Notes under the pieces: generated by a model
Databases searched by the model: none
The model's input: only the letters and a program-made list of their open reading frames with translations
Told to the model about the DNA's origin: nothing
Made by a program: the position numbers and the translations under genes
Source of the DNA: an uncultured Planctomycetia bacterium
Lineage (GTDB): Bacteria > Omnitrophota > Gorgyraeia > Tantalellales > Tantalellaceae
Reading direction: 5' to 3'
Length of the DNA: 64,000 nucleotides
Assembly (NCBI GenBank): GCA_964572255.1
Contig: CAZNEE010000001.1
Span: 66,223-130,222 of the forward strand
Shown here: positions 1-15,200 of the stretch, piece after piece
Layout of the letters: the number at the start of each line of letters is the position of its first letter
How positions within the stretch are numbered: position 1 is the stretch's first letter

Positions 1-127
1 AAGAGTTAATGAACTTACACGATATTTACTGGGGGTAAAGGATTCTACGGATGAACTAAAAAAACAGAAAGTTTTTGAAGATACTCTTACAGATCAAGGA
101 CTTGAAGTAGCAGGAAAATTACGCGCT

Positions 128-3100
128 ATGAGCACCAAAACCTCAATAGTCTTGGCAAATTATACTCCGAAGGAAAAAGCCCAGGCTCTGAGGAACGTGC
201 AAGAGATCGATCCGATCCAGGCCATAGAGGCTTTTCAGGTAATGGAGAATCACTTTACAGGTTTTAAGAATAAGGAGGATTTTATTGCTCTGATCAGATT
301 TTACTGCGTATTTTCTGAAGGTATTGGACATGAATATTCTTCATATAGAAGCGAACTGCGCAGTATATTTACATATTTGTTGCGAGACGTTCGTTTTCCC
401 GATCCCGATCATCCGGAGATCAAGCTGGACCTTGATGATCTTGAAGATATAGCTAAAGCGGTGAGCGATGTAGAGACTGCCGAAAAAGAACTCGGCGTGA
501 GTGCGGTAAGTCAGGATCTTAATGTATCCGCGGAAGATATACCGATGTTCAGAGACCTCCTTTTTGAGGTTTTATATGAACGCCTTTCGGAAATTGAAGA
601 TCCCGATACGTTTTTTACCGTATTAAAGGATTTTTTAAACAGATGGCCTCTGGTCGGGTATTCCGAGATGATCAATATGGAGAGCCAGTATTTGCATATT
701 GACCCGAAACCCATTCTGGATCCCGGAGAAGTCAAATCTAGGTATGAAGGGATCGTGAAAAAAGGCATCCGGTTCATAGGGTCATCAGGGCCTGTATCCG
801 GAGATGATCCGGAAGTCCTGGAGCGCCTTATGATGGTGAGCTTCTTTTTGAAGGATATGTTTATAAAGTCCACCGTGCAGGAAGATCTTGCGATGAGGAT
901 AACGGAAAATATGGATTTTGAAGATGCGCTTGATTTTACCGAGAATTCCTACCACCCGCAAAACCCCTCCGGATTCCTTAGCTGCTGGGAGTACTTGATC
1001 GAAGAAAAGGCCCGGACCACGCAGCAATTGGATATATTGGGCGAAAAAATATTTAACATTTTGAGCGTTGACTCTGAAGGCATGGCGAAGACTTTCGGGA
1101 ATATTGCGGGATTTGACTGGCTTTCTGACCGCGTATTCGATGACAAACTGTTTTCTCTTCTGGCCTTGATGGAATCCGGCCAGAGCGACCAGAACTTAAG
1201 GTCATATCTTTTTTCAAAATGGTATGACAAATATAAGAAGTTTATAGATCCCGCAGAGGCGACCGAAATAGATTCCGGCGAACTGGAAGAGTGGGCCTCT
1301 GAAAATCCTGAAACGGTCATGCAAGAGGTTACTCGTGCTGACTATGATATCGGCAAATTATATTTCCCTTTGCAAAAATCAATGGAACAACTTTACAGGA
1401 TGGGCTTTAAAAGCAAATATGTTCTATTGAGGAAGCTGCTGGCAGGCAGAAACGGTGTTCTGCGCTTATATGAAAATAGAAAATTGCTGCTGAATGATTT
1501 CCTCAAGAGCAGCGTATCGTTTGAGGACGGGGGAAAGAAAGCAGAAGAGGTAATAACGGATATTTTAAGTAAGTTCTTTGAAGAGGCAGAGGAAGATCAG
1601 CTTTATTTTATGCTAAATCCGATCCTTATGGACCGCATCGGTGTTCCGCCCAGGGAACCTACACCATGGCATGATATTCCCGAGGTCAAAGATGAATTTC
1701 ATGAGATCGTGGACTACCTTTCCCATTATGATGTATTTCCTAAAGCGGGAATGGACGAAGTGGAAACGGCCGTTACAAAAAGGCTCTTAACATGGATATA
1801 TGGCTACACCCCGAAAGACCTGGATGAATCCGTCTTGGAAGAGAGCGAAGACCCGGACGATAAGTTTTTATCCCTGGCAGGTACAAGCACTTCCGGAGAA
1901 GGGATAGAACAGCTTACCTCAATAGGCCTGATCCTGCAGGTCGCAAAAAGGCTTGGTGCTCCCGGTGTAAGATTCCTTCAGCTTTTAGGGCAATTCATTG
2001 ATCTCCCCGATGAATATTCCGATGAATTCATGGATGTATATGATTCGATGGTAGGACAGTCAAGACTTTCAGCTTACCAGCTCCTGAAAAGGGAATGCCC
2101 CGAATATGTAAAAAGGATAAAAAAATTCAAACCCAGGGTCGGAGGCGGCTCACTCATGACGGTGTATGAAGTCGAGCTGGATGATGGGGCCAGGGAAGTC
2201 GTAAAGGTGCGTAACCCCAACGCCAGGTATTTTGCCGAGAGGTCTATCGAGCTCTTAGAGAAAGTTTTACGGGAGCTGTCGGAGGAAGATGAAAGGTACG
2301 AACAGGCGCTTGCGCTTCTTGATGACCTGCGGGAGTGGATCGAGGGGGACCTTACCGACGATGCATTTGCCGAAAATGATAAGATTTTCAGAAAGACCAA
2401 TGATGGATATAAGCCGAAGAAATTTAATTACAAGATAAGGGTATTCGAAAGCCATGACAGCGGTTCTCCGTACGTGATAAGAGAAAGATTTGTTGAGGGA
2501 ACGGACCTCACGAGAATTAATGACACAGATTTGCACCAGGATGAAAGAAAAGAAATCGCCGGCTTGATCATAAGAAATTATCTTGACCAGATCAAGGGGA
2601 GCTTACTTAAGGGGACTGCACTAGTGCATGCAGATGTTCATCCCGGTAATTTCAGGGTGACCGGGGATAAAGAAGTTGCGATACTCGACCGCAGTTCATA
2701 TATCGAATTGACGCTTGAAGATAGACTGTTGGTCAACAGTTTAGCAAAAGCCGGGAATATAGAGGAAAGATTAAAGATATTCCTTAAATATCTTGCAAAA
2801 CAAGAGGGGAATCAACATCTTAAGGACGCCAAGGAAGAAGAAAAAATTCGTTCTTTTGTATTGTCCAAATTAGATACAAATAAGAAGGACTTGGAAAAAG
2901 CCGTCTTGGATATCATCGTGCATCTCAAGAGGAGGAACGTGAAAATACCTCTTAAGATAACACTGCTTGTTAAAAACTTACATATACTCAGCAAGTGGGC
3001 AAAGGATGCCGGATTTGATTCGCTTCAGGAAGCGGCTGAATTCAATCCTAAGAAGCAAAAAGGCAAAGCCGATAGTACCGGAAAAACCTTACATATGAAA

Positions 3101-6100
3101 GGCATAGCTACGATCCTGGGAGTTATTATAGGTTTTGTAGTGGGAATGCCGGCATTAGGTCTTGGTATAGGAGTTCTGGCGGATATTGTTTTTGCGCTTC
3201 CGGCCGGATGGATAAGCGTTTTCATCAAAGCTGTCCGCAAGGAAGTGAAATATTTTATCGGTGTCGGTACGGGCGCGCTGATCACGCTTCTTATATTGAT
3301 GTGCGTTCCTGCGGACCATGCCAGAGGGAGCAGCGGATTGGTCAGCGAACCCAGCATGGTATTTTTCGGGGATAGTTATAAAACCGGTATTCCCGCGGCA
3401 AGGCTTGAGGACATCGAACCTGAACCGCTATTCGGTCAAGAGCCGGAGGAAAGGCTCGAGGGGCCCGGTGACGGCAAGCCTTATAGTACCGTTAAAATAG
3501 GATTTGAAGAGGTGAGAGATGCATATATTCCTCTCAGGAACAGGAGAAGCGGAAAAAATGCCGATAAAAATACATTGACCGCTGCAGGTAACTTGATCGA
3601 TCTGGTGTTGGAACATACCGATATAGACATGTCTGATGAGTACAGAAAGAACGTGAAGTTCCAGCTGATCATGACGATGATGGTGGAAAGCGACCAGTTT
3701 GCAGCACGTTTTCAGTACGGCGGAGGCCCTAACAGGGGGCTTGCACAGTTAAATCCCCGGGATGCCGGGAGGATCATTGATTATGTAGACAGAAGGTCGG
3801 GAAGGGAACTGTTCAAAAATGTTCTCCTGAAAACCATCGGCGAAGACTGGCAAGAGACCATTCTTGATAAGTCTGTCGATGAAATAACGGCCATGGTACA
3901 GGGGAAAGCCGGTGCGGAAGAAAAAGAAAAAGCAGAATGGACCACCCGGGTCGGCGGATTCAAATCATTTCTCATATATTCCAAGTTCAAGGTCCTTATT
4001 GCAAAGGCTCTGGATGCTGATTGGAGTTCGATCACAGCCATGACAGATCAGGAAATAGCCCAGAAGCTGGCTGATAATGATCTGCTCACGGCCGTAATGA
4101 GCCGCGCATATTATTTCATGAGCCCGGGGCTTGTTCCGGACAGAGGGGATCTGGAAGCCGTATACGAGTATTATCTCGCGACATGGGATCCCGACCCGCC
4201 CGTTTCCATGGACAGGTTTAAAAAGATGGCGGAAGTGGTCAATGAAAGCGGCATCATTGAAGGCCCGAGCGCAGTGATCGTAAAAACGGCAGCTGAAGAT
4301 AAAACCAAGGTTGTCCGGGAAGCCGTCCGTGAAAAAACGCCGGAAGACGCACAAACCGAAAGAAGCATCGAATCTGCTATGGGCAAGGATATCCCATTAA
4401 GGAACAGAACAGCCGAAAGAAGGCCAAGCAAAGAGTCCTTAAGAGCTTTGGCGGAGATTATAGACATTATCCTTGAACATACAGACAGGGAGATGACAAC
4501 GGAGTATAAGGAGAACGTAAAGAACCAGATAATCATGACAATAATGGTCGAGAGCGACCAGCTTGCGGCGCGGCAGCAGTACAAAGGAGGACCTGCCAGG
4601 GGCCTCGCGCAGTTCGAACCTTTGACCGCGGAATATGTCAGGGATTATATAGGAAAGAGATCCGAAGCCGGAGGGTTCACAAATGTAGTAAAAAGGGTGT
4701 TTGGTGAAAATTGGGAAGAGGCAGTATTCACAATGTCCCATGAAGAAATAATCGATAAGTTGGCGCAGCAGTTGGCGAATAAGCCGGATCAGACGCCGAA
4801 AGAAGAGAAAAAGCTCATAGAAAAGATCATTAAAGGCAAAGTCCGGAATTTCAGGTCATTTTTGGTATATTCAAGGTTCAGGTTCCTCATCATAAAGGCA
4901 TTGGGTTCGGATTGGGGATCAGTTACGGCCATGAGCGGCCAAGAATTGGGGGACAGGATGGCGAAAGGTGCGGGAAGGGACGTGTTCGCCATTACCATGA
5001 GCCGTGCGAATTATTTCAGGGATCCGAGGCTTATTCCTGACAGGAGGGACACGGAAGCCGTATATAGATATTATCTCGAGAACTGGCGTCCCGGAAAACC
5101 CGTTCCTTTTTCAAGATTCAGGGATCTTGTCCGGATGGTCAATGAAAGCGGTATTTTCAAGACAGAAGAAGTGGTTACCCCGGAACCGTTCGAAACACAG
5201 GAGATGCAAACGGAACCGCTTGTGCCGGCTGCCGGCAGTTGGTTCAGCGACCCCGAATATGCCCGGAAAAAAGCATGGTGGATCGAGACCCTGATATCTT
5301 TTGGAGTTGGAACGGTTACTGCGCTTACATTGGCGCTGGCGGGGCTTGCGAATGCCATTCCTTTAACGGCTTCTATCGCGGCCGCGGTCACTTTCTGGCT
5401 TCCTCATTTATTATTCGATAACAAAAAAGCGGCTTTTGATCATTCTGTTCTTTCTCTGTCGCTTGTTACATGGCTTTTCTCTATGGCAGCTTTCTTGCCG
5501 GTTTATTTCGGGGCAGCCCTTCCTATATCTATAGGGGCGGTCGTTTTTTCAGGTGTTTCATTGGCATTAATGCACAGGAAGATGAATCTGGGCATAAGAG
5601 CTATACCCAAATTATTTTTATTCATAATATTGTGTCTGTTAAGCCGCGGACAGGCAAAAGCGGATGAGTTTGAGGATGACCTTCAATTCATGCCGACATT
5701 TGAATTAGTGCCGGATGGAGATGGAGATCCGATACCGAAGATCGGTTTTTATTTTAAATGGACGTTCGGGGGCGATTCGGAAGATTATACCTATTACAGA
5801 GAAAAGCGGCCTTCTTTGGATACATGGAGCCGCGTCGGGCTGACAAGCCTTTTGGTGCTGGGCACGCATTACTATGATAAAGATGCCGGCGATACACGGC
5901 CTTATCTATATGCGAACGTGTTAAGTTCGGCTCTATTGGGCACTTTTGGATCATGGCAGCATGACCAGGATATACTGGACAACACGATATACGGGGGTTT
6001 AGCCGGACTTACGATGTATGCGGGCAAACGCTTTACGGGAGATATGCTTGATGAGCCGGGTTACTGGAGTTTTCTCGGAAGGCCCATCCATTCAGTCGGT

Positions 6101-9100
6101 GTTTCGATGAGAAATAATATTTTAATAGGAGAGGCGCCTTTCAGCAGGCTTGAATTTGATTTCGGGCCGGCACTCTTTAGTTTTGTACCGAAAGACGATC
6201 ATATGGATGTGGGTTTTTGCCTGCTTCCGTATCCTTTATGGGGCATGAGCCACGGTCTTGTTTCCGGAGGGAAGATCGATTGGAGGAGCACTTTCAAGGT
6301 AGGTGCTTTGGTTTTTGAAGGCAACAAAAGCGATCCATATTTGGCCGGTGCAGCCGGAGTGGCAATAGGTAATGTTATATTTCGTAGGCCTGACAGTTAT
6401 TTTGAAGGCAGAGAAGAATTCTTCAAGCCTGTTTTATATCACGAATTTATTCATACGACGCAATATAATGATCTTAGTAGCTTGTGGTATTTTTTCATGC
6501 ACCTCTCAGATGTTGACAGAAAAGGAATGATAGACTTTTCCAGAAATTATTGGTTGAGGATCGATAGACTGGCCCCTTGGGGGACAGGTATGTTATGGAA
6601 TTGGCATGAAAAATCACAGGATATTGAACATGATGATATGCTTATTGAGTTGGAAACAACGGCATTCGAGGAATGGTATAAAGACTCCCATGAAATAGAA
6701 TTACCATGGTCTCACCATTTCCGGTTTCCGAAATACATCTGGGATGAGTTCGAGAGACGTCTTATAGAAAACCCCGAAATAAGCTCGGATGTTTACAAAC
6801 AGGTCAAGATCAACGGCCTTGCCTGGAGAGATGCGAGAAGTAAGCTTCACTGGCTTGATGAAATGATCGGGGAAGAGGATTTCGAGAGAGTTTTAACTCA
6901 GGCTAAAGACGCCATAAATGCCGTTAAAAAAGGATCTTCAAGAAAAGTAGCGGATATATCCGAAGTTAGAGATGTAGTCCTGTACCATGAGTTGATACAT
7001 TCTAGTTTTCATGATGTAAAGTATAAGGAGCTGATCAAAGGCTTATGGCAGAAATTGTACGAAAAAACGGGGCCGCTTCATGAAAATCACCCGTTTATCA
7101 CCGCCTTCAGGAAAGTATACGGTGAACCTCACGGGATCGAAACCACATCCCTGGACAGGATCGGCTGGTATCTTGAGGAATTTCTCACCTTATCCATTCA
7201 GGAGAAAAATGTCTTTAATGATGAATATGCCGTTATCAACAGGATGGATTATGATGACCCGGACTTCCTCAAAAAAGCTTTGACAGAGGTCCTTGACACT
7301 AAGATAGCCAGGGATCTTATGAGATTTTTACCGGAGAAAGCCATTAAATATAAAGACGGCACATCTAATGCGGAAACTAAAGTATTGCCCGCGGAAGAAG
7401 ACCCCCGTTTATCCCGGGAAATTCTGGAAATGATAAGGAAAGCGGATACAGTCCGTATCCAGATAGAGCAAAAAAAGAGAAGCAGGACCAAAGCTTTTGA
7501 AGCGGAAGAGGCCAGGACAACAAAAGGAAGGGGCAAGGTAAAAGCGTTCGTGCCTCCCCAAAAAAGAAGCCTTGTCGATACTGCTGTTTTTGAAAATGAA
7601 CTTGCCAGACTGGGCGTTGTAGAGATGAAGAAAGGAAAGTATCACTTCAATATCATTCCAAATCTCAAAATGACCCCTGATGGTGAAGTCAGAATAGATA
7701 TGGAAAAGGCCTTGAGGTATAAAGATTTAATAGCTATACCCGAAAGCTTATCGACAGAAAATGTCAGGATCGTCCAGGAGCTGTATTATCAGGCTGTGAT
7801 ATTGGAACTTAAAGCCAGGAGAACCGAAGGTGAGCAGGCAACTTCTTTATTGATGCAGGCCGAAGTGATGAGAGCAAAAGCCAATAAAATACTTGAAGAT
7901 TGGGAGATAAAGCCCAATGACGCCGTAGTTAAGAAAAATCTGGAGATGATAGAGAAGAAGTTAGCCCCGTATAAAAATGTCAAAGAAACGGCAAAGTTCG
8001 ACAAAGAAAAAGAAAAGAAAAAAGTTATAAAAGTAATGGTGAACCCGAATGGCGAGATCGTAGATAAGCCGGGAACCTTGACCCAGACAATAGAGATCGT
8101 TTTTGATACATGGGATAACCAGCTGGAACTTCCTCTGAAGAAAGTTCATATCAACCTTCGCCAGGCTGTTAAGTATTACAACAGGGCAAATACACCGTCC
8201 GCGAAAATCAAGTTTACAACTACGGTCATTGACAAGATCAAAGAGGAGGAAGCGGAGCAAAATTTTGAAGGAAAAACACAGATAGAACCCTTTGAAGATA
8301 ATTTACCGGGAACTGTGATGAACTCGTCAGACACTATCGGAAAATGGGAAGAAGTCGTGCCTGTTAAATTATCTAAAAAAACAGGCGCACTTGAAGGCAT
8401 TATCATGAACATTGATACGAAAGAGACAATAGACCTTTCCAGGGTAAGCCAGACATGGCTGGATGATCCGAATGAAATGGTATCTTATGTTAACCGCGTT
8501 GAAAATTATATTCAGCAGGCCAGTCCCTCTCCAGAAGAAGGCGAACTCCTTCAGGATATTATAAGACAGTTCAAAGCTCATTTACCCGAACGGATCGTTA
8601 TTGTTAACGAAGGGAAGAAAGGTTTTTTCGGAACGGGAAAAGAGAATTTTATTATTATTGATGAGACGCTTTTGAATGATGATCCTGAAGCCCTCCTTCA
8701 TGAGATCAGTGAATACTTAAAGCACAGTGATCCTGAGATCATAAGCCGCATGGAAAATCTTCTCGATCATTCTAAATCCAATAAATATGCAGGAGGCGTG
8801 TGGCTTGATGAAAAAATGGCAAAATATGAAGCTCAAGGGAGACTGGATTATTTTATTAAGAACAGGGAACATTACGTTATCCGCGCTTTTATACGCCAGG
8901 TATTTAAGGATAAGGACGTGGAGTTGACCCGGGCCATAAAAGAGTCATATTTAACCGATAACGGCACAATGTCTAATCTTAAGGGGATAGACTTAAAGTC
9001 CATGATAGGCGAGAAATTATTAAGTGCATTCACTGAATTAAATAACGGGAAGAGGCCTCAGATCATAAACGTATCCGGGCAATATGAGGATGTTGCAGCC

Positions 9101-10390
9101 GAACAGGAGAAAAAGATGAAGGATATTCCGGATGACGAGTATGTTATCGTGACCTTGTCTGATTCTATTCAAAGTTTCGAGTACTATGTCGATTATTACC
9201 GCATTGCGGTCGACAAAGCGGGCATTTTCAGGGACAGACATTTTAAGAAGCTTTGGGAAGAAAACGGCGATCTCGGGCGGGATTTTGAATTTGTCTTTAG
9301 TTTCCGGATATTTCAGAACTTAAGCGTTGAAATAGGCGATGTTGCCGTAGGCAAACATAAAAGCATGGATCTTGAAGATCTGAAGAGAGTTGATGAATTA
9401 AGAGGCAAGGGAATAGTGTCCGAGGCTTTCAGCATTCTCGCAAAGAGGCTCGAGGAAGATCTGGGAGGGAAAAATATAGTTACCAGGTCTTTAGAGGAAA
9501 CAGAGAAAGAGGAAGAGGAATTTAAGATCATACCGCATCTTATGAGGAAGCATTTTGACGCGCAAAAAGTCGGTTACAATACATACATCGGGAAGATAAG
9601 AACCAGGATCGACCCCGAACTCCCGGCTTTAACGAGCCTGGAAGAGGAAGAAGGCGAGAGGGAACTTAAAGAATATCTTACGGATCTTGTAAGCGAAACG
9701 GCCCAGGGAAGCATGCAGGACCTTATGGACGGTGGAGAGGTAATATTTAACATTCCTCTGAATCCTGAAATGGCAGGTGTAACGGATGAAGTAAGATCAA
9801 AATTCTACAACAGGATATATGAAGCCCGCAGATTATCGAACGATCTGGTCCAGACCTTTAACCTCGGGAATATCATGATAAATTTCTTCGAAGAATCTGC
9901 TGAAGGGAGAAGCGAACTTTTAGCCAGAATGCAGAAGGCTATCGGCAAGTGGGGCGACATTACAATCGAGGATAAAAAAAGAAGGGTCATAACTTTCTCT
10001 TTTGAGAAGAGCGAAGAAATAGAGAGGGAATCATTTGTTGTTTATTTGGAAGGTGCTAAAAAAGGTGAAAAAACCGCAACACCTACGCCGATATCGGCTT
10101 GTGTCGCCGCGGGAATAAGAATAGTGAACCTGTTCGATCTCACCAGATCCGATAGAGAGGCGAAGCCTGATAAGGATCAGATCGAAGATGCCGTCAGAAA
10201 AGCGGCCAGAGGAATAGTTGCGTTATCGGGCTCGATAAATAAGCAATTATTGGATTCCCTGGTCGCCAGGATCCAAAAAGAAGGATTACTTGAACTGTCG
10301 GGAAAATTATTCGTGAAAATCAGACCTATAAATTGGGGCGAGGTAATTTTATATCATGAAGCTGAAGCGGAAGCGCTTAGATCACTGTAA
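128..10390 (+). CDS. Giant multidomain membrane protein, 3,420 aa from the first ATG. The reading frame has no stop between position 2 and 128, so the gene very likely continues upstream of the window (5'-partial). Contains an ABC1/UbiB-type kinase-like domain, two tandem SLT-like repeats, two TM clusters and two LYHExIH motifs.
   Basis: Single uninterrupted ORF in the supplied track. I read codons 2-127 by hand and found no stop. Motif reading: GGGS...VVKV...HADVHPGNF...ILDRSS (ABC1-like); MVESDQ...GGPxRGLAQ twice (SLT-like); hydrophobic stretches at about 3100-3310 and 5280-5640; HEFIH at 6440-6454 and HELIH at 6986-7000. Confidence 0.8.
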   Translation: MSTKTSIVLANYTPKEKAQALRNVQEIDPIQAIEAFQVMENHFTGFKNKEDFIALIRFYCVFSEGIGHEYSSYRSELRSIFTYLLRDVRFPDPDHPEIKLDLDDLEDIAKAVSDVETAEKELGVSAVSQDLNVSAEDIPMFRDLLFEVLYERLSEIEDPDTFFTVLKDFLNRWPLVGYSEMINMESQYLHIDPKPILDPGEVKSRYEGIVKKGIRFIGSSGPVSGDDPEVLERLMMVSFFLKDMFIKSTVQEDLAMRITENMDFEDALDFTENSYHPQNPSGFLSCWEYLIEEKARTTQQLDILGEKIFNILSVDSEGMAKTFGNIAGFDWLSDRVFDDKLFSLLALMESGQSDQNLRSYLFSKWYDKYKKFIDPAEATEIDSGELEEWASENPETVMQEVTRADYDIGKLYFPLQKSMEQLYRMGFKSKYVLLRKLLAGRNGVLRLYENRKLLLNDFLKSSVSFEDGGKKAEEVITDILSKFFEEAEEDQLYFMLNPILMDRIGVPPREPTPWHDIPEVKDEFHEIVDYLSHYDVFPKAGMDEVETAVTKRLLTWIYGYTPKDLDESVLEESEDPDDKFLSLAGTSTSGEGIEQLTSIGLILQVAKRLGAPGVRFLQLLGQFIDLPDEYSDEFMDVYDSMVGQSRLSAYQLLKRECPEYVKRIKKFKPRVGGGSLMTVYEVELDDGAREVVKVRNPNARYFAERSIELLEKVLRELSEEDERYEQALALLDDLREWIEGDLTDDAFAENDKIFRKTNDGYKPKKFNYKIRVFESHDSGSPYVIRERFVEGTDLTRINDTDLHQDERKEIAGLIIRNYLDQIKGSLLKGTALVHADVHPGNFRVTGDKEVAILDRSSYIELTLEDRLLVNSLAKAGNIEERLKIFLKYLAKQEGNQHLKDAKEEEKIRSFVLSKLDTNKKDLEKAVLDIIVHLKRRNVKIPLKITLLVKNLHILSKWAKDAGFDSLQEAAEFNPKKQKGKADSTGKTLHMKGIATILGVIIGFVVGMPALGLGIGVLADIVFALPAGWISVFIKAVRKEVKYFIGVGTGALITLLILMCVPADHARGSSGLVSEPSMVFFGDSYKTGIPAARLEDIEPEPLFGQEPEERLEGPGDGKPYSTVKIGFEEVRDAYIPLRNRRSGKNADKNTLTAAGNLIDLVLEHTDIDMSDEYRKNVKFQLIMTMMVESDQFAARFQYGGGPNRGLAQLNPRDAGRIIDYVDRRSGRELFKNVLLKTIGEDWQETILDKSVDEITAMVQGKAGAEEKEKAEWTTRVGGFKSFLIYSKFKVLIAKALDADWSSITAMTDQEIAQKLADNDLLTAVMSRAYYFMSPGLVPDRGDLEAVYEYYLATWDPDPPVSMDRFKKMAEVVNESGIIEGPSAVIVKTAAEDKTKVVREAVREKTPEDAQTERSIESAMGKDIPLRNRTAERRPSKESLRALAEIIDIILEHTDREMTTEYKENVKNQIIMTIMVESDQLAARQQYKGGPARGLAQFEPLTAEYVRDYIGKRSEAGGFTNVVKRVFGENWEEAVFTMSHEEIIDKLAQQLANKPDQTPKEEKKLIEKIIKGKVRNFRSFLVYSRFRFLIIKALGSDWGSVTAMSGQELGDRMAKGAGRDVFAITMSRANYFRDPRLIPDRRDTEAVYRYYLENWRPGKPVPFSRFRDLVRMVNESGIFKTEEVVTPEPFETQEMQTEPLVPAAGSWFSDPEYARKKAWWIETLISFGVGTVTALTLALAGLANAIPLTASIAAAVTFWLPHLLFDNKKAAFDHSVLSLSLVTWLFSMAAFLPVYFGAALPISIGAVVFSGVSLALMHRKMNLGIRAIPKLFLFIILCLLSRGQAKADEFEDDLQFMPTFELVPDGDGDPIPKIGFYFKWTFGGDSEDYTYYREKRPSLDTWSRVGLTSLLVLGTHYYDKDAGDTRPYLYANVLSSALLGTFGSWQHDQDILDNTIYGGLAGLTMYAGKRFTGDMLDEPGYWSFLGRPIHSVGVSMRNNILIGEAPFSRLEFDFGPALFSFVPKDDHMDVGFCLLPYPLWGMSHGLVSGGKIDWRSTFKVGALVFEGNKSDPYLAGAAGVAIGNVIFRRPDSYFEGREEFFKPVLYHEFIHTTQYNDLSSLWYFFMHLSDVDRKGMIDFSRNYWLRIDRLAPWGTGMLWNWHEKSQDIEHDDMLIELETTAFEEWYKDSHEIELPWSHHFRFPKYIWDEFERRLIENPEISSDVYKQVKINGLAWRDARSKLHWLDEMIGEEDFERVLTQAKDAINAVKKGSSRKVADISEVRDVVLYHELIHSSFHDVKYKELIKGLWQKLYEKTGPLHENHPFITAFRKVYGEPHGIETTSLDRIGWYLEEFLTLSIQEKNVFNDEYAVINRMDYDDPDFLKKALTEVLDTKIARDLMRFLPEKAIKYKDGTSNAETKVLPAEEDPRLSREILEMIRKADTVRIQIEQKKRSRTKAFEAEEARTTKGRGKVKAFVPPQKRSLVDTAVFENELARLGVVEMKKGKYHFNIIPNLKMTPDGEVRIDMEKALRYKDLIAIPESLSTENVRIVQELYYQAVILELKARRTEGEQATSLLMQAEVMRAKANKILEDWEIKPNDAVVKKNLEMIEKKLAPYKNVKETAKFDKEKEKKKVIKVMVNPNGEIVDKPGTLTQTIEIVFDTWDNQLELPLKKVHINLRQAVKYYNRANTPSAKIKFTTTVIDKIKEEEAEQNFEGKTQIEPFEDNLPGTVMNSSDTIGKWEEVVPVKLSKKTGALEGIIMNIDTKETIDLSRVSQTWLDDPNEMVSYVNRVENYIQQASPSPEEGELLQDIIRQFKAHLPERIVIVNEGKKGFFGTGKENFIIIDETLLNDDPEALLHEISEYLKHSDPEIISRMENLLDHSKSNKYAGGVWLDEKMAKYEAQGRLDYFIKNREHYVIRAFIRQVFKDKDVELTRAIKESYLTDNGTMSNLKGIDLKSMIGEKLLSAFTELNNGKRPQIINVSGQYEDVAAEQEKKMKDIPDDEYVIVTLSDSIQSFEYYVDYYRIAVDKAGIFRDRHFKKLWEENGDLGRDFEFVFSFRIFQNLSVEIGDVAVGKHKSMDLEDLKRVDELRGKGIVSEAFSILAKRLEEDLGGKNIVTRSLEETEKEEEEFKIIPHLMRKHFDAQKVGYNTYIGKIRTRIDPELPALTSLEEEEGERELKEYLTDLVSETAQGSMQDLMDGGEVIFNIPLNPEMAGVTDEVRSKFYNRIYEARRLSNDLVQTFNLGNIMINFFEESAEGRSELLARMQKAIGKWGDITIEDKKRRVITFSFEKSEEIERESFVVYLEGAKKGEKTATPTPISACVAAGIRIVNLFDLTRSDREAKPDKDQIEDAVRKAARGIVALSGSINKQLLDSLVARIQKEGLLELSGKLFVKIRPINWGEVILYHEAEAEALRSL
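2100..2760 (+). other. ABC1/UbiB (aarF-domain) atypical kinase-like domain inside the 128-10390 ORF.
   Basis: Gly-rich loop GGGSLMTVYEV, a VVKVRNPN lysine strand, and HADVHPGNFRV followed by AILDRSS. These match the ABC1-family signature HADPHPGN. Confidence 0.5.
3527..4265 (+). other. SLT-like (lysozyme-fold, ES...GLxQ...AYxF) module, copy A of a tandem intragenic duplication.
   Basis: IPLRNRRSG...MTMMVESDQFAARFQYGGGPNRGLAQ...SRAYYFMSPGLVPDRGDLEAVYEYYL...VNESGII. This is a paralogous copy of 4391-5160, about 45% aa identity by eye. Confidence 0.45.
4391..5160 (+). other. SLT-like module, copy B of the tandem duplication.
   Basis: IPLRNRTAERR...MTIMVESDQLAARQQYKGGPARGLAQF...SRANYFRDPRLIPDRRDTEAVYRYYL...VNESGIF. 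The unit spacing is about 864 nt. Confidence 0.45.
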
Positions 10391-12002
10391 TATTGTTATG
10401 AAACTGATATCCATCGTGGTTATCCTATCTCTCAGTGTGCCCGATTCGGCCATGGCACTGGCTCCCGCGAACAGATTTAATCCGATCGAGGATGCGGAAG
10501 AAAGGCAGGCCTGGGATGAAGAAACGGTCAGGAGCGTTAAAGCAGGCGAAGTGCTCGGTAAATCCTTCAGGAACAGGGTCGCTTTCCGTGATATGAGTAT
10601 TTTGATAGGGAAATACCTTCATTCGGGCATATCAAAATACACTCTCGTTCAGGAAATTAAAGAACATATAGACGCGGCAGAACTTGCTTTGAGCAAGACA
10701 CACCGGGATCCGCTCCTGGCGGGGTTTGAGATCGATGAATTGGAATATCGTGAAGATGAGAATGCATTTTATCTGCCTTTATACCGACAAGGAAAAAAAG
10801 CGTTTTATTACAAGTATTATACGGAAAAGGACGAAAAGAACCCACCCCACATCACGATCCCCCTTGGTAACGGAGAGTACGTTTATGTTGATGTGGTAAA
10901 GATCCTTCCGGATGAAGAAAATGAAGTATCGATAAACAATAAGGAAATGTCATCGGAGGAAGAGCAAAACATGTACATAGAATTAATGCTCAGGTTGAGG
11001 AAAGAATACCCCTGGCGTCAGTGCGCGGAACTTTCGAGCATACTGAAAGGCGAGCTTGAAAAAATGGGGGTAAAAGCCACAGTGTACACTACCCCAGTAT
11101 TTCTTGAACATTATAATATTGATCATGTCTGGGTTGTGACCGAGAAGGGATGGACACTGGATGCTTATCCGGAAGGTTCCAGGATGCCTAAGAAATTTGA
11201 TCATTTATGGAAAGAGACCAAAGGAGTTATAGCATTAGGCCCCGACTCCATCGGAAAATACCCGTATAATTCCGAAAGAGTTGAGATGGAGGTTGGTGAA
11301 GAGATAATAGGATATTTTTCAAAACGCGGATCCGAGTCTGAAGGGTTCGGTTCGATGGAAAAACTTGCCGCTGAGAGATCAATAGAACCCACTCCGGGAT
11401 CAGAGAAAAAACATGCTGTTCTTTTTAAAGATGCTGTTAAAATTAGCCAGGTAAGGGAAGAGGAGAAGATTTCATTTATCGCTCTTGGTACAAGCTGGAT
11501 CAAAGGCTATAAGAAGGGCATATTCCTTCAATATGATGCCTTGAATCCCCTGATCAAGTCTGTCAGAAAATTTTGTGAAGATAATGGCATACGTTTTGTA
11601 GAAGGGGACGATGAAACGATAGTAGGGGCCGTAAAAGATATTAAAGAAAAAGACCCCGGCGCCAGGGGCGTGGTATTGGCCGGCGAAGGTGTTGTCAATA
11701 TTCTTGAGGAATGTTTTGAAAATGCAGGCCTTGAGAACGATGACAGTGTTTTATTTGCCGGCGTTGACAATGGAAATCTCACCGTCGATAGTTATATAAG
11801 ATTTTTAGAGATGTTAACGATTGCGTTAAGATTATCAGCACGCGATTCTGTAAATGAAAATATCATAAAAGTTCTCCAAGTAAGATATCCGCAATTGGGA
11901 TTAGAGCTTGTGCATGGCAGACGCATTAAATTCATTCCCAAAGCCGAACCCCTGGACTATGAACTGTTCAAAGAGATCTGCGAAGTTCAAATCTGCGCTT
12001 AA
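10356..12002 (+). CDS. Hypothetical secreted protein (548 aa) with a putative transglutaminase-like cysteine-protease core (Cys in WRQCAEL, His-x-Trp in DHVWVV, Asp in GWTLDAY). The start at 10356 overlaps the stop of the upstream giant ORF by 35 nt; an alternative start is at 10398.
   Basis: ORF track. N-terminal signal-peptide-like KRKR...MKLISIVVILSLSVPDSAMA|LAP. A GAGGT Shine-Dalgarno-like sequence lies 13 nt before 10356. The core motif resembles G.C...H.W.E...GW..D of the Transglut_core family. Confidence 0.7.
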   Translation: MKLKRKRLDHCNIVMKLISIVVILSLSVPDSAMALAPANRFNPIEDAEERQAWDEETVRSVKAGEVLGKSFRNRVAFRDMSILIGKYLHSGISKYTLVQEIKEHIDAAELALSKTHRDPLLAGFEIDELEYREDENAFYLPLYRQGKKAFYYKYYTEKDEKNPPHITIPLGNGEYVYVDVVKILPDEENEVSINNKEMSSEEEQNMYIELMLRLRKEYPWRQCAELSSILKGELEKMGVKATVYTTPVFLEHYNIDHVWVVTEKGWTLDAYPEGSRMPKKFDHLWKETKGVIALGPDSIGKYPYNSERVEMEVGEEIIGYFSKRGSESEGFGSMEKLAAERSIEPTPGSEKKHAVLFKDAVKISQVREEEKISFIALGTSWIKGYKKGIFLQYDALNPLIKSVRKFCEDNGIRFVEGDDETIVGAVKDIKEKDPGARGVVLAGEGVVNILEECFENAGLENDDSVLFAGVDNGNLTVDSYIRFLEMLTIALRLSARDSVNENIIKVLQVRYPQLGLELVHGRRIKFIPKAEPLDYELFKEICEVQICA

Positions 12003-12062
12003 ATACCTATAATTATTAAACTTATATAAAATTAAGGTTTAAAAAAGCTGGAAATTATAGCT

Positions 12063-12091
12063 TTGTGTTTTTGTTATATTTCTGATACAAT
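12063..12091 (+). promoter_or_regulatory. Candidate sigma70-like promoter for the 10-kaa giant gene: TTGTGT, 17-nt spacer, TACAAT.
   Basis: Hexamers read in the AT-rich 216-nt gap between 12002 and 12219. No other strong signal was seen in that gap. Confidence 0.3.
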
Positions 12092-12218
12092 ATAACAGAT
12101 AACATAACAAAAAGCTAGATTTTAGTGGAAGGTAGCCTATCACTCTTCAAATTCATGGGGATTGAACTAAAAGAGGGTAGGCTACAGTTATATATAGGAA
12201 AGTTAAATATTTTAAAAT

Positions 12219-15200
12219 ATGTTTAATATCAATAATAATATAATAACTGAAAATAATACCAGACCTCTTATTATGGACTGGCAAAGCTCCAGAAATAAGA
12301 AGTGGATCAGGACCATAGCGTTAATAGTCATATTCTGCTTTACACATCAATCAATAGGATGGACCGAAAACGGAACCCCCGTATGGACAAGATCAGTTAA
12401 CCTTCCGTCAAATATCGCCGCAAAAGAAGAAGTATTCACCTCAAAAGGAATTAACGGCGACAAGACTATTATCAATATACAGGATGCCCACGCTTCCTTA
12501 AGCGCCCAGGAATCTATTGTATCCGTACTGGATTCATTAGTGTCCAATTACGATCTGAAACTCATAGCTGTTGAAGGATCCGCGGGGCGCATCGACACGT
12601 CACTTTTAAGGACTTTTCCGGATAAAGAAATAAGAGAAAGGTCCGCATACCACCTTATGAAAAAAGGAAAGATGTCGGCTGGAGAATTTTTCTCGATAAC
12701 TTCTGATAAGGAAGTTGCACTTTATGGCGTTGAAGAGAAAGATCTTTATAGGAAAAATGTCGATCAATTTCGCGGCATCTATGAAACGAATCAGGTTATC
12801 CAGAAGGATATACTGAATCTTATCAGCGTTTTAGATGTTTTAAAAGACAACATTTATTCGCAAGAATTAAAAGAGCTTGAGAATAATTCCGTTTTACATG
12901 AGAAGGGAAGCATAACCCTGAAGGAGAGATGGTCTTTTCTCGGCAAGCTGGCCCGTAGATCGGGAGTAAGTCACAAGGAGAAGAAAAACATATCAAAACT
13001 TGTTCAATGTCTTGAGCTGGAGGAAGAGATAGATTTTGAAAAGGCCAATAGCGAAAGATCCGCTCTTATAGATATCTTAAGTAAAGAATTGTCCAAGGAA
13101 GCGCTCGAAGAATTCGTTCTCAAGTCTCTTTCGTATAAGGAAGGCGGGATAACTCAGGGCGAATATCATTTATATCTCCGGAACTTGATGAAAGAGGCAG
13201 GGATCCCTTCCGTGACATATAAAGATCTGAACAAGTTTACAGACTATATTTTTCTCTATGAATCGATAGATATTATCAGTATTTTTGAAGAGATAAAAAC
13301 CTTTGAAAATGAGATAAAAGACAAGTTATTCAAAAACCGCGACCAGAGGGATCTGGACGCATTTTCAAGATACATGGAAACGATCAGGGACCTTTTCGAG
13401 ATAAGACTCGTTAACAGTGATTTCGGGTATATTGTTCAAAACAAAGATAAGTTTACCGCTTCAAATCTTTCAGAATTCATAAGAAATTCTTCCTCAAAGT
13501 ACGGTGTCAGGGTAAAGTGCGATTTTGATCTGGCCAGGATATTCTCCGGCATACCTAAAGCTCTTGAATTTTACAGAACTGTAGAGGAGAGGAACTCCGC
13601 GATACTCGCGAATACCATCAAGGAAATGGACGAAAAAGGACAGAGTATAGCAGCCCTTATCACCGGAGGTTATCATACCAGGGGCTTGAAAGAACTTTTA
13701 AAGAGAGAAGAGACTTCTTATATCGTGATACTTCCTAAATTTGATGATTCGGAAGAGACAAAACGCCCTTACATAGCGATCCTTACCAATAAAAAGGAAC
13801 CCTATCAGGAGCTTTTGGATTCCGGGAGATATTATCTTGCCACAAGCGCTTATTGCGAAGGGATAATAGATCTTTTCAAGAGTTCAGACTCTTTAGAGGG
13901 CGATATCCGGGAAAAATACTTTGAACTGGTGGATAATTACGGGGAAATATTCATTCATAATGTCGTTATGTGGGTTACGGGAGAGTCGGATCCTGATAAG
14001 GCGGCCGGGGTTTTCAGGAGGAAATTCAGGAGCAATCCCGAAAGGATACACAAGGAATGCGCGGATCTTATTGACAGCTGGTCGGGGAGTTACAAAAGTT
14101 TTTACGATGGATGCGAGGACAAGGAACTGTTGATCTCCCCTGAAGAGACTAAAAGGTTCCTGGAGTTTTTGGTCGAAGAGAAGCTCGGAGCTACACGTGA
14201 AAGCAAAGAAGAGCCGGTATTACTGCAGGGAGAGGAAAAAGATCTGCAGGATGAGTCTTATGTTGTCAGAAGCGTTATAGAGAGGATCACTAGTCTTGGC
14301 GGCGATATAAGTGATCTTGACAGGGCTTGCAGGATCTTAGGGGTGACCCCCACACCAGGCATACGGGAAGAGGTTTTAGGGCAGTTAGGAAAGATGGAAG
14401 GTGCAGAAGATGCTGAGGTGTCTCCTAAGGAAGAGATATCTGAACCCGAAGAAAAAACTTTGATTGCAGAAGAGGCCGGAACAGTCGAGGAAGATATAAG
14501 GAAAACTGAACCATCCAAAGAAAAGGGTTATGAGGAGCATGCTTTCACGGTCAGGTCGGCTGAGAAGGCGATCATAGTCAGCATTTTATTGTCTTTATTG
14601 AGCTTTGCCGGTGCGGTCAGTTTATTGATATTTAACTATACTTCTCTTTGTTATGTTGTTTTCTGCGGCCTTCTGTCGTTAGCAGGCGTTTATTTTATTT
14701 TTGCCGCTATAAGATATTTTATCATCAAAGAGGATGTTGAGGAAAGATTAACGAGGCGCCTTGTAACGCTTGGCCTTAGCGAGGAAGAGGCCAGCAAAGT
14801 CGTCAAACATATCGCTATAACACATTCCTCGATAGATTACTATGATCATGTGGGGCCGCAATACGGAAAGTTAAAGGAAGAACAGATCCTCCCCAGTAAA
14901 AAGATAAGGGATGAATTTTTGCCTAAGGATAAGGAAGAGAGAAATAAATACATTGCAATATTTAAAGAAGCGGCACTGATTTCGTTCAAGAATATGCACC
15001 CGGACAGTGTTAAAAATTATAACAGAGTTCTTTTAATCAAGCATGAGTCTTTCAGTCATATCAGAGGCTTATTAGCTATCACGCCTATCAGCCTGCATAA
15101 TGCCGCAATATTCGGAAATGCCCTGACATTTTTATCATTTATCGGAATCTGGATCTATCTTTTCGTAAAGGATAATATCAGCATGCCGCTGGCCGGCGGT

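Follow-up and report, generated by a model that had tools for sequence, protein, structure and literature searches.

A 5,798-aa modular membrane protein of an Omnitrophota bacterium with predicted cell-wall- and protein-degrading modules

The first 10,390 nucleotides of the DNA analysed here (the window, a stretch of 64,000 nt) carry the part of one real Omnitrophota gene that encodes the C-terminal 60% of its product, P0001, which has 5,798 aa at full length. Analysis of the sequence indicates that P0001 is a polytopic membrane protein of independently conserved modules, and that it is a new, smaller member of the multi-TM, multi-enzyme giant class already known from this phylum. What is new is an N-terminal head of about 550 aa, common to at least 395 loci, with downstream modules that are shuffled between head-bearing proteins. 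Omnitrophota are uncultured bacteria of ultra-small size that probably live as predators or episymbionts, and their giant proteins are largely unannotated. At 5.8 kaa, P0001 provides a small, fully assembled and tractable case, with more than half of its window modules now delimited.

Extent and layout of the gene

Translation gives 3,462 stop-free codons between nucleotides 2 and 10387, followed by a stop codon at 10388-10390, of which the ORF program had listed 128..10390 (+), 3,420 aa. The original prediction that the gene starts upstream of the window and is much longer proved correct. On JGI contig L003, which overlaps the window over 14,634 bases with 6 differences, the gene occupies 6088-23484, and 2,336 codons lie upstream of the window, placing P0001 residue 2337 at window codon 1. 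There is neither an in-frame stop nor another gene at the window edge, and the start on L003 is preceded by an in-frame TAA at 6070, 18 nt before the ATG; beyond it lie a 283-nt AT-rich gap and a divergent ECF-type sigma factor gene. P0001 was found at 100% identity over 100% of the query and is present in NCBI, JGI, ENA and Logan assemblies. A search with the whole protein gave just three matches, an extreme isolation that might suggest a chimera from mis-assembly or sequencing error, or a stop codon read differently, but this is very improbable, given that the same 5,798-aa product occurs on contigs of independent assemblies (one variant differing by 2 residues), that 17.4 kb run without a stop, that in 39 of 42 head-bearing loci from many genomes the ORF also runs on without a stop for 1,240 codons or more, and that table 11 translates the adjacent genes normally.

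Upstream of the window, P0001 consists of an N-terminal signal anchor, the head, multi-TM blocks, a weak GNAT-like region and a Peptidase M48 domain that passes the Pfam cut-off (PF01435, 37.3 bits against 20.3; P0001 1843-1915, with HEIVH at 1905). Within the window there follow an ABC1 domain, three TM helices, two endolysin-type repeats, and a four-helix TM block with a signal-peptide-like segment. The C-terminal part comprises module C (HExxHxxQ…E), module D (an unrelated HExxH…EE) and about 1,000 unassigned residues. Hydropathy analysis gave 17 candidate transmembrane helices. About half of the window protein's residues gave no match in Pfam, NCBIfam or the PDB. The features of the window are as follows.

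2..10390 (+), giant gene, C-terminal 3,462 codons plus stop (P0001 residues 2337-5798)
2..1942 (+), unassigned region, about 650 aa, ahead of the ABC1 domain; without a sequence match in Pfam, NCBIfam or the PDB
1943..2980 (+), ABC1/UbiB-type atypical kinase-like domain (PF03109; Pfam core 2120-2743)
2198-2209, 2627-2650 and 2681-2689 (+), its key elements: Lys in VVKV, HADVHPGN loop and Asp of ILD
3086..3319 (+), hydrophobic cluster of three candidate transmembrane helices (P0001 3374-3438; from hydropathy and flanking K/R counts)
3527..4276 (+), lysozyme-fold (endolysin-type) repeat, copy 1 (phrog_3108); candidate catalytic Glu in VES 3683-3691, GLAQ 3737-3748
4391..5176 (+), lysozyme-fold (endolysin-type) repeat, copy 2, the modelled copy; VES 4547-4555, GLAQ 4601-4612
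5192..5584 (+), module B, about four hydrophobic helices
5609..5662 (+), putative signal-peptide-like hydrophobic segment KLFLFIILCLLSRGQAKA, ending AKA/DE (the slash marks the predicted cleavage site)
5630..6673 (+), module C, Gly-rich four-helix bundle, then a zincin-like domain; HEFIHTTQ from 6440, near-invariant Glu (window residue 2216) at 6647-6649
6704..7273 (+), module D, orphan domain of about 190 aa; invariant FRFP..IW, HELIH 6986-7000, W..EE 7166-7180
7274..10387 (+), C-terminal part of about 1,040 aa; no family assignment except module E
8354..8947 (+), module E, conserved stretch common to the large proteins P0048 and P0052, by sequence comparison
10356..12002 (+), downstream 548-aa ORF, overlapping the end of the giant gene by 35 nt; no Pfam or NCBIfam match

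Modules of the window part

The claim of an ABC1-type kinase core is supported by a PF03109 match of 51.9 bits (cut-off 22.9; window residues 707-914) and by the presence of the active-site residues. The domain matches the Mycobacterium tuberculosis ABC1 ATPase 5yjz at E 1e-4, with VVKV, HADVHPGN and ILD aligning with vaVKiq, HgDaHPGN and iiDfg, such that the beta3 Lys, the HxDxHPGN catalytic loop and the DFG-equivalent Asp are all intact. Thus, it shares the Pfam domain, catalytic Lys, HxDxHPGN and metal-binding Asp with the ABC1/UbiB kinases (E. coli UbiB, COQ8, MABP-1 5yjz). Those kinases are standalone proteins of about 450-550 aa, whereas the window domain sits inside a giant protein. KxGQ is a motif of ABC1/UbiB kinases; in the window protein it reads LLGQ. 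UbiB proper was considered and rejected: the TIGR01982 equivalog gives 40.8 bits (profile 56-398 of 436), and because this is far under the cut-off of 487.55 we regard the domain as a divergent ABC1 domain rather than a UbiB orthologue.

The two repeats were originally described as SLT-like. The duplication itself is clear, with 118 of 262 positions identical (45%) and E 8e-80, and a model of copy 2 shows a lysozyme-like fold with a Glu of catalytic type at a helix end; the lysozyme/lytic-transglycosylase fold therefore stands, but the family does not, as PF01464 (SLT) gave no match to the window protein up to E = 1, and it scored 11.5-13.3 bits against small relatives of the repeats, under its cut-off of 21.3. 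From profile comparison, the repeats are better described as members of the phage endolysin family phrog_3108, and their relation to SLT is one of distant, fold-level similarity rather than membership. The phrog_3108 profile matches copy 1 at E 3.4e-15 and copy 2 at E 3.5e-19, in each case as two stretches on either side of about 60 inserted aa that the phage relatives lack. Likeness to the phage proteins extends to (Q/V)ES…R.Q…GPARGLAQFE and W(R/D)PGKP, in addition to the significant profile match and the lysozyme fold. Family 1 lytic transglycosylases (PF01464; Slt70, MltE, phiKZ gp144) likewise have a Glu-Ser catalytic-type motif followed by GLxQ, and the E-S and GLAQ motifs are conserved in the repeat alignment. 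However, the third motif of SLT-type lytic transglycosylases, of AYNxG type, was not seen in that alignment. Small phrog_3108 members sit in phage holin-lysozyme-Rz-Rz1 and lysozyme-spanin cassettes, examples being the 'lysozyme' gp42 of Burkholderia phage AH2 and a Litunavirus 'lysozyme' beside a spanin. In the phages, the protein is a single domain of about 165 aa encoded in a lysis cassette, whereas here two tandem copies lie between TM blocks of a giant protein. We found no experimental literature on muralytic activity of phrog_3108; as predicted muralytic enzymes carrying a novel insertion, the endolysin-type domains may be of biotechnological interest.

Two TM clusters had been predicted, the second (nt 5273-5662) ending in a signal-peptide-like segment, and both were recovered. 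The four-helix block, module B, is conserved in other large Omnitrophota-type proteins, sometimes twice per protein. The AKA/DE segment resembles the N-terminal signal peptide (…TAKA/DF) of P0056, a standalone relative of module C, the domain that follows the segment; standalone module C relatives in general carry signal peptides. By flanking-charge counts, both TM clusters are predicted to run in-to-out, which cannot hold for both, and the counts therefore do not fix the side of the membrane on which the lysozyme-fold repeats would lie.

Each of modules C and D contains an HExxH, in the motifs at 6440-6454 (HEFIH) and 6986-7000 (HELIH), the first reading HEFIHTTQ over 6440-6463. HADVHPGN, the two LYHExIH motifs and the signal-peptide-like segment were all found as originally described. 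The window part contains 2 HExxH motifs where shuffles gave 0.07 (P about 0.0015), and the full protein contains 4 where 0.18 were expected. The reading of the two as a duplicated pair failed: only the 19-column HExxH helix of modules C and D aligns, at an hhalign probability of 2.3%, and they are two unrelated modules. Module D gave no match in Pfam or the PDB, and it occurs almost only in other large proteins. In module C, the HExxH and downstream Glu are nearly invariant among 83 relatives (consensus HExxHxLQY). A DUF4157-type zincin had been proposed at this first HExxH; in favour are the HExxHxxQ itself and the fact that PF13699 (formerly DUF4157) is the best Pfam resemblance among relatives, weakly matching 21 of the 83 (best E 2e-5; those looked at scored 14-15 bits against a gathering cut-off of 22), with other relatives matching assorted zincins. 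The window copy, however, was not matched: Pfam searches with module C returned no family at E of 1 or below. We conclude from these comparisons that module C bears a distant resemblance to PF13699, confined to the first HExxH, and is not a member. Its best PDB profile match is BepA, aligned on the metal helix, and Foldseek against the PDB gave no significant match. Thus, module C resembles DUF4157/eCIS_core and M48/minigluzincins (BepA, 3c37, proabylysin, projannalysin, selecase) in the HExxHxxQ helix and downstream Glu but, unlike them, begins with a Gly-rich four-helix bundle of its own.

The head and the known Omnitrophota giants

The head is Pfam-dark and is marked by the motifs hIHIQDAHCN…NLEGG and ITGGFH(S/T)ENL. 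Among the best 80 of the at least 395 confirmed loci that carry it, nearly all are labelled Omnitrophota, with several per genome. Nine other proteins of 2-7.7 kaa combine the head with differing subsets of the modules, which on sequence comparison shows the downstream modules to be shuffled among head-bearing proteins and suggests a route by which such proteins are built. The arrangement can be likened to polymorphic toxin systems, in which a conserved head carries interchangeable payloads. By this analogy, we tentatively suggest, as a possibility we consider rather unlikely at present, that the head marks a large superfamily, specific to Omnitrophota, of polymorphic effector arrays anchored in the membrane, in which an N-terminal export, anchoring or processing domain would be joined to interchangeable payloads (endolysin-type, zincin-type, orphan HExxH and TM blocks). 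Were this so, the gene would offer a small and tractable model for the construction and diversification of the far larger Omnitrophota giants. The head itself may be a TraB/GumN/TIKI-like protease, and its profile provides a handle for finding the whole family whatever the length of the protein.

The module combination was originally thought to be one not usually found together. That does not hold for this lineage, in which multi-TM, multi-enzyme giants implicated in cell-wall degradation, sometimes with SLT-type domains, have already been described (West-Roberts et al. 2023, bioRxiv 10.1101/2023.11.21.568195; Nielsen & Lui 2026, bioRxiv 10.64898/2026.06.07.730766). P0001 belongs to the same phylum as these giants, which form class 1, 'multi-enzyme clusters', in Nielsen & Lui 2026, and likewise combines numerous TM helices with many unrelated enzyme domains in a single chain. 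Further shared features are large Pfam-dark stretches, an N-terminus in which no domain can be identified, peptidase domains and the occasional domain of SLT type, and a C39-peptidase protein and another giant gene nearby. At 5,798 aa it falls under the length thresholds of both catalogues (at least 30 kaa in West-Roberts 2023, at least 10 kaa in Nielsen & Lui 2026). A divergent SecA-DEAD domain is reported in most catalogued giants ('Archaeovorin' type); no SecA-DEAD, glycosyltransferase or dockerin domain is among the Pfam matches of either half of P0001. Conversely, the ABC1, M48 and putative zincin domains of P0001 go unmentioned in the main text of either paper.

Proposed role at the envelope and genomic setting

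The likeliest role of P0001, which we consider reasonably probable, is that of a polytopic modular enzyme degrading cell wall and proteins at the envelope, its activity, topology and target all being predicted. The hydrophobic blocks would pass the chain repeatedly through the cytoplasmic membrane, leaving ATP-dependent modules such as ABC1 inside and exposing the muralytic and peptidase modules outside. The targets would be peptidoglycan and proteins, either in a host or prey cell to which the bacterium is attached or in its own envelope, and the peptidase modules, or signal peptidase acting at AKA/DE, may split the chain into separate enzymes. Three catalytic predictions are testable: a muralytic Glu in each repeat, the HExxH…E zincin and the ABC1 ATPase.

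Another way to view the giant chain is as a mere delivery form, cut by its own peptidases or by signal peptidase at AKA/DE-like segments into independent soluble and membrane enzymes, which would fit either target. The excess of HExxH motifs (4 against 0.18) together with the M48 domain, the internal signal-like segment directly before a domain whose standalone relatives use a very similar signal peptide, and the self-cleavage proposed for other Omnitrophota giants all point this way. However, the cleavage sites are predicted ones, the zincin assignments are distant, and access for signal peptidase needs a topology that charge counts do not settle, and we regard a polyprotein precursor as possible though doubtful.

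Somewhat less probable again is a housekeeping machine, in which enzymes for the cell's own envelope (for quality control an HtpX/BepA-like M48 protease, for wall remodelling a lytic-transglycosylase-like enzyme, and for lipid or quinone homeostasis an ABC1/UbiB-like ATPase) are fused and are not directed against other cells. M48 and ABC1 families are typically housekeeping membrane proteins, and both domains pass Pfam here; peptidoglycan synthesis is also reported to be complete in Omnitrophota. The genes around the giant gene are themselves housekeeping (LigA, PolX and GlmM-like), and so a housekeeping envelope role fits the neighbourhood as well as a predatory one. On the other hand, several head paralogues per genome with shuffled payloads would be unusual for a core housekeeping function, the nearest relatives of the repeats are phage endolysins and not cellular lytic transglycosylases, and the ABC1 domain reaches just 40.8 bits against the UbiB equivalog cut-off of 487.

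Consistent with the assignment to Omnitrophota, the named proteins closest to the window's LigA all belong to Ca. Omnitrophota (62-72% identity), as do most of the giant protein's named relatives to Omnitrophota. No terminator-like sites were seen on the + strand between the giant gene and the next two genes, and the pairing of the giant gene with the 548-aa ORF recurs on independent contigs. The originally suggested co-expression with the downstream genes remains a conjecture on which the 35-nt overlap and the missing terminator-like sites have a bearing. A gene for a C39-peptidase protein and another giant gene also lie near the P0001 gene.

Extent and motifs of the giant gene

The giant gene is real and was correctly observed, and its original interpretation was right in part. 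The open reading frame listed at 128..10390 (+) encodes 3,420 aa, and translation gives 3,462 sense codons from nt 2 to the stop codon at 10388-10390. That the gene starts upstream of the window was borne out by a homology search with the window's translation, which recovered P0001, a 5,798-aa protein identical over the entire query and whose residue 2337 is window codon 1. A variant differing at 2 residues (P0004) is encoded on JGI contig Ga0180437_10002687 (L003), which shows 6 mismatches to the window in 14,634 overlapping bases. On L003 the gene occupies 6088-23484, with an in-frame TAA at 6070, a 283-nt AT-rich spacer upstream and then a divergently transcribed ECF-type sigma factor gene. 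The outcome that would have spoken against an upstream start, a stop in frame or a different gene directly before the window, was not observed. P0001 was found in NCBI, JGI, ENA and Logan data, on contigs of up to 527 kb; that separate assemblies yield one and the same ORF speaks against a chimera. The whole-protein search returned only 3 matches owing to its word prefilter; relatives came from domain-wise queries and a full HMMER scan. Matching the window's first 50 bases exactly against genome contigs gave no hit.

On translation, all of the originally predicted motif positions proved correct, and both hydrophobic clusters are present:

nt 2627-2650 (+), HADVHPGN
nt 3086-3319 (+), first hydrophobic cluster
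nt 5273-5662 (+), second hydrophobic cluster
nt 5609-5662 (+), hydrophobic segment KLFLFIILCLLSRGQAKA
nt 6440-6454 (+), HEFIH
nt 6986-7000 (+), HELIH

HExxH is in excess over composition-preserving shuffles, both in the part of the protein within the window (2 against 0.07 expected, P about 0.0015) and in the full protein (4 against 0.18). A third LYHE, not of the HExxH type, lies at the extreme C-terminus, which reads ILYHEAEAEALRSL followed by the stop codon (window 10349-10390).

ABC1 domain and tandem endolysin-type repeats

The ABC1 call was confirmed by PF03109, at 51.9 bits against a cut-off of 22.9. NCBIfam contributed one further match, a weak one to the UbiB model TIGR01982 over profile positions 56-398 of 436; its score of 40.8 bits, where the equivalog cut-off is 487.55, marks the domain as a divergent ABC1 member rather than a true UbiB. 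In the alignment with the Mycobacterium tuberculosis structure 5yjz, an ABC1 ATPase (E 1e-4), counterparts exist for the VVKV lysine, the HADVHPGN loop and the ILD aspartate, and judged by sequence the active site looks intact. Our literature search found no paper connecting ABC1 domains with Omnitrophota.

Downstream of the ABC1 domain lie two tandem repeats:

nt 3527-4276 (+), repeat copy 1, P0001 3512-3761, candidate catalytic Glu at window residue 1229
nt 4391-5176 (+), repeat copy 2, P0001 3800-4061, candidate catalytic Glu at window residue 1517

Over 262 residues the copies share 45% identity (E 8e-80). Their description as SLT-like holds at the level of the fold and not as the Pfam family SLT, which has no match in the protein. 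Searching with a profile built from both copies recovered 34 small proteins (about 165 aa) that lack Pfam domains, and these, like the copies themselves (E 3.4e-15 and 3.5e-19), match phrog_3108, a family of "unknown function". Against SLT and Phage_lysozyme2 the small proteins gave sub-threshold matches only, around the segment of the catalytic Glu. Aligning the repeats with the small proteins shows conservation of (Q/V)ES…R.Q…GPARGLAQFE and W(R/D)PGKP, and an insertion of about 60 residues in each of the giant protein's copies. For copy 2, AlphaFold2 gave a confident model (pLDDT 85.8, pTM 0.83), whose structural comparison listed values of 7.9 for the fungal muramidase 8b2e, 7.5 for FlgJ, 7.4 for the phiKZ lytic transglycosylase gp144, 7.3 for MltE, 7.1 for the T6SS effector Tse3 and 6.5 for Slt70; sequence and profile searches of the PDB with the repeat gave nothing useful.

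Small relatives occur in 106 records of deposited phage genomes. The gene stands between holin and Rz/Rz1 in Burkholderia phage AH2 and directly precedes an Rz-like spanin in a Litunavirus, in both cases the position of an endolysin. Taken together, the phrog_3108 match, the fold and the place in phage lysis cassettes mean that the repeat is best described as a duplicated endolysin-type domain of lysozyme fold. Among the results listed by our literature search, none gave an experimental characterisation of a phrog_3108-type endolysin. Several Litunavirus records (e.g. MZ955867.1 43564-44040 and OR237807.1 29654-30130) label the phrog_3108-type gene "major capsid protein", which is probably a misannotation, since related records name the same gene, there preceding the spanin, "lysozyme".

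HExxH modules and proposed membrane topology

A full HMMER scan of 1.84 billion representatives showed that P0001 3505-4700 consists of four modules, each conserved independently of the others. The first HExxH lies in module C (P0001 about 4213-4560), which is common to many standalone proteins of about 280 aa that have signal peptides at their start and HExxHxxQ at their end; in an 83-sequence alignment, H4483, E4484, H4487 and E4552 are kept in at least 90% of sequences. The prediction of a DUF4157-type zincin at this motif survives as a distant resemblance: PF13699 (eCIS_core, formerly DUF4157) is matched by 21 of the 83 members (best E 2e-5) and a few match other zincin families, whereas the window's own copy matched neither PF13699 nor any other family in this Pfam comparison. 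The best PDB profile match is the M48 protease BepA (E 0.058), with the alignment falling on the HExxH helix. The structural model of module C is confident (pLDDT 86.1) and its Gly-rich four-helix N-terminal bundle matches helices of membrane proteins; a Foldseek comparison with the PDB gave no significant match. Weighing the conserved HExxH and Glu, the family and PDB matches, the model and the Foldseek result, we consider module C probably, though not provenly, zincin-like.

Module D (P0001 4571-4760) holds the second motif. FRFP..IW, HExxH and W..EE are invariant in its 14 sequences, which come nearly all from other large proteins and include two copies in the related protein P0039; it matched neither a Pfam family nor a PDB sequence, and a PDB sequence search with C and D as one stretch gave nothing useful. 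The original prediction had paired the two LYHExIH motifs as copies. In a profile-profile comparison of C with D, however, only the 19-column HExxH helix aligns, with a probability of 2.3%, which rules out an internal duplication as the source of the two motifs.

The module inventory, two modelled folds, the intact catalytic motifs and the modular character of the family are established. In the arrangement we propose, the hydrophobic blocks would thread the chain through the cytoplasmic membrane, leaving the presumably ATP-dependent ABC1 domain on the cytoplasmic side and the endolysin-type and zincin-type modules outside, where they would cut wall polymers and proteins. By counts of flanking K/R, the first anchor fits N-in/C-out, placing the head (the N-terminal part of P0001) outside; the three-helix cluster that separates ABC1 from the repeats fits in-to-out, as does the five-helix cluster before module C. 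Both clusters running in-to-out is topologically incompatible unless a span has been missed, so the model is weakest in where it would place the repeats. An even number of helices in one of the clusters, or a missed span, may account for the conflict. The last helix of the five-helix cluster ends AKA|DE, resembling the signal peptide …TAKA|DF of P0056, a standalone relative of module C. This likeness suggests that module C was acquired as a unit with its export signal, and on the same sequence grounds signal peptidase might release it.

The head family and genomic setting

Three features merit further study: the head family, the insertion-bearing duplicated endolysin-type domain, and both HExxH modules, D being an orphan. 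Upstream of the window, P0001 begins with a signal anchor, followed by the head and a multi-TM block; among the further modules, an M48 peptidase domain passes Pfam (37.3 bits against 20.3) and a GNAT-like QGKGIG region is weak (18.8 bits, below the cut-off of 20.7). Within P0001 650-1640 lie further candidate catalytic motifs that no HMM confirmed: the multi-TM block, with ILEESARF and HFWHN, appears CPBP-like by eye; a candidate JAMM-like HSHPPAAFGWGPSQAD at P0001 1423 has the pattern HSHx9SQAD, and a further candidate HExxH, HEIGH, lies at 1630. Window residues 1-647 and about 2425-3462 matched no family or solved structure, except for module E, which recurs in two other large proteins.

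P0001 45-612 (L003 about 6220-7920), head with motifs hIHIQDAHCN…AQKKI…NLEGG and ITGGFH(S/T)ENL

Nine proteins of 2,051-7,718 aa have P0001 residues about 12-612 in common (up to 494 bits, local phmmer against the retrieved proteins), each with a different subset of lysozyme-type, TM-block, C, D and E modules. A scan of head members gave no Pfam match, and the PDB sequence search returned only noise-level troponin C and centrin; by its motif pattern the head may resemble TraB/GumN/TIKI-type enzymes. Scanning species-representative genomes with the head's most conserved part, using a search built on 5 closer sequences (the first head alignment was too divergent), confirmed at least 395 loci. 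The best 80 of these are nearly all labelled Omnitrophota. Genomes often carry several; JBARQV010000033.1, for instance, has three in 24 kb. Of the 42 loci with sufficient flanking sequence, 39 have an ORF that begins 55-115 codons ahead of the match and extends without a stop for 1,240 codons or more. Many head-bearing contigs (L006, L010, L017, L020, L025 and others) come from "uncultured Planctomycetia bacterium" MAGs (binchicken co-assemblies). Their heads are as close to the query as Omnitrophota ones, so the Planctomycetia label may be a misassignment. For the window's LigA, every one of the closest named relatives (62-72% identity) belongs to Candidatus Omnitrophota or Omnitrophica. Named relatives of the modules in the giant protein come mostly from Omnitrophota MAGs; single entries are assigned to Elusimicrobiota and Nanoarchaeota.

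Giant proteins of Omnitrophota have numerous TM regions, many enzyme domains and N-terminal regions without identifiable domains, sometimes bear peptidases of the C39 or S8 type and, more rarely, SLT-type domains, and have been implicated in degradation of prey cell walls (10.1101/2023.11.21.568195); "multi-enzyme metabolic clusters" form one of three architectural classes in a 2026 catalogue (10.64898/2026.06.07.730766). The main text of neither paper mentions ABC1, M48 or zincin. The present protein is the same in kind, but it is shorter than the thresholds of the catalogued giants, lacks SecA-DEAD and has a different domain set.

Three ORFs lie further along on the same strand:

10356-12002 (+), 548-aa ORF, starting inside the giant gene's end with a 35-nt overlap
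12219-42617 (+), 10,132-aa ORF of midasin/Rea1-like layout
47428-52926 (+), 1,832-aa protein

The giant gene and the 548-aa ORF stand in this order on two or more independent contigs; the ORF's label as transglutaminase-like found no support, with no Pfam or NCBIfam match at E <= 0.01. In the 10,132-aa ORF, HEAT/ARM repeats (HEAT_2, 585 bits) make up roughly the first 5,000 aa, followed by seven AAA_5 (dynein/MoxR-type) stretches (473 bits), a Midasin AAA-lid (92 bits) and, at the C-terminus, a VWA domain (64 bits). A C39 peptidase domain (48.8 bits) is present in the 1,832-aa protein; in giant proteins of Omnitrophota, such domains are reported close to the N-terminus (10.1101/2023.11.21.568195). 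GC skew is positive in all 2-kb bins, with cumulative skew rising over the 64 kb, and the long ORFs are nearly all on the plus strand, consistent with one replichore with a strong gene-strand bias.
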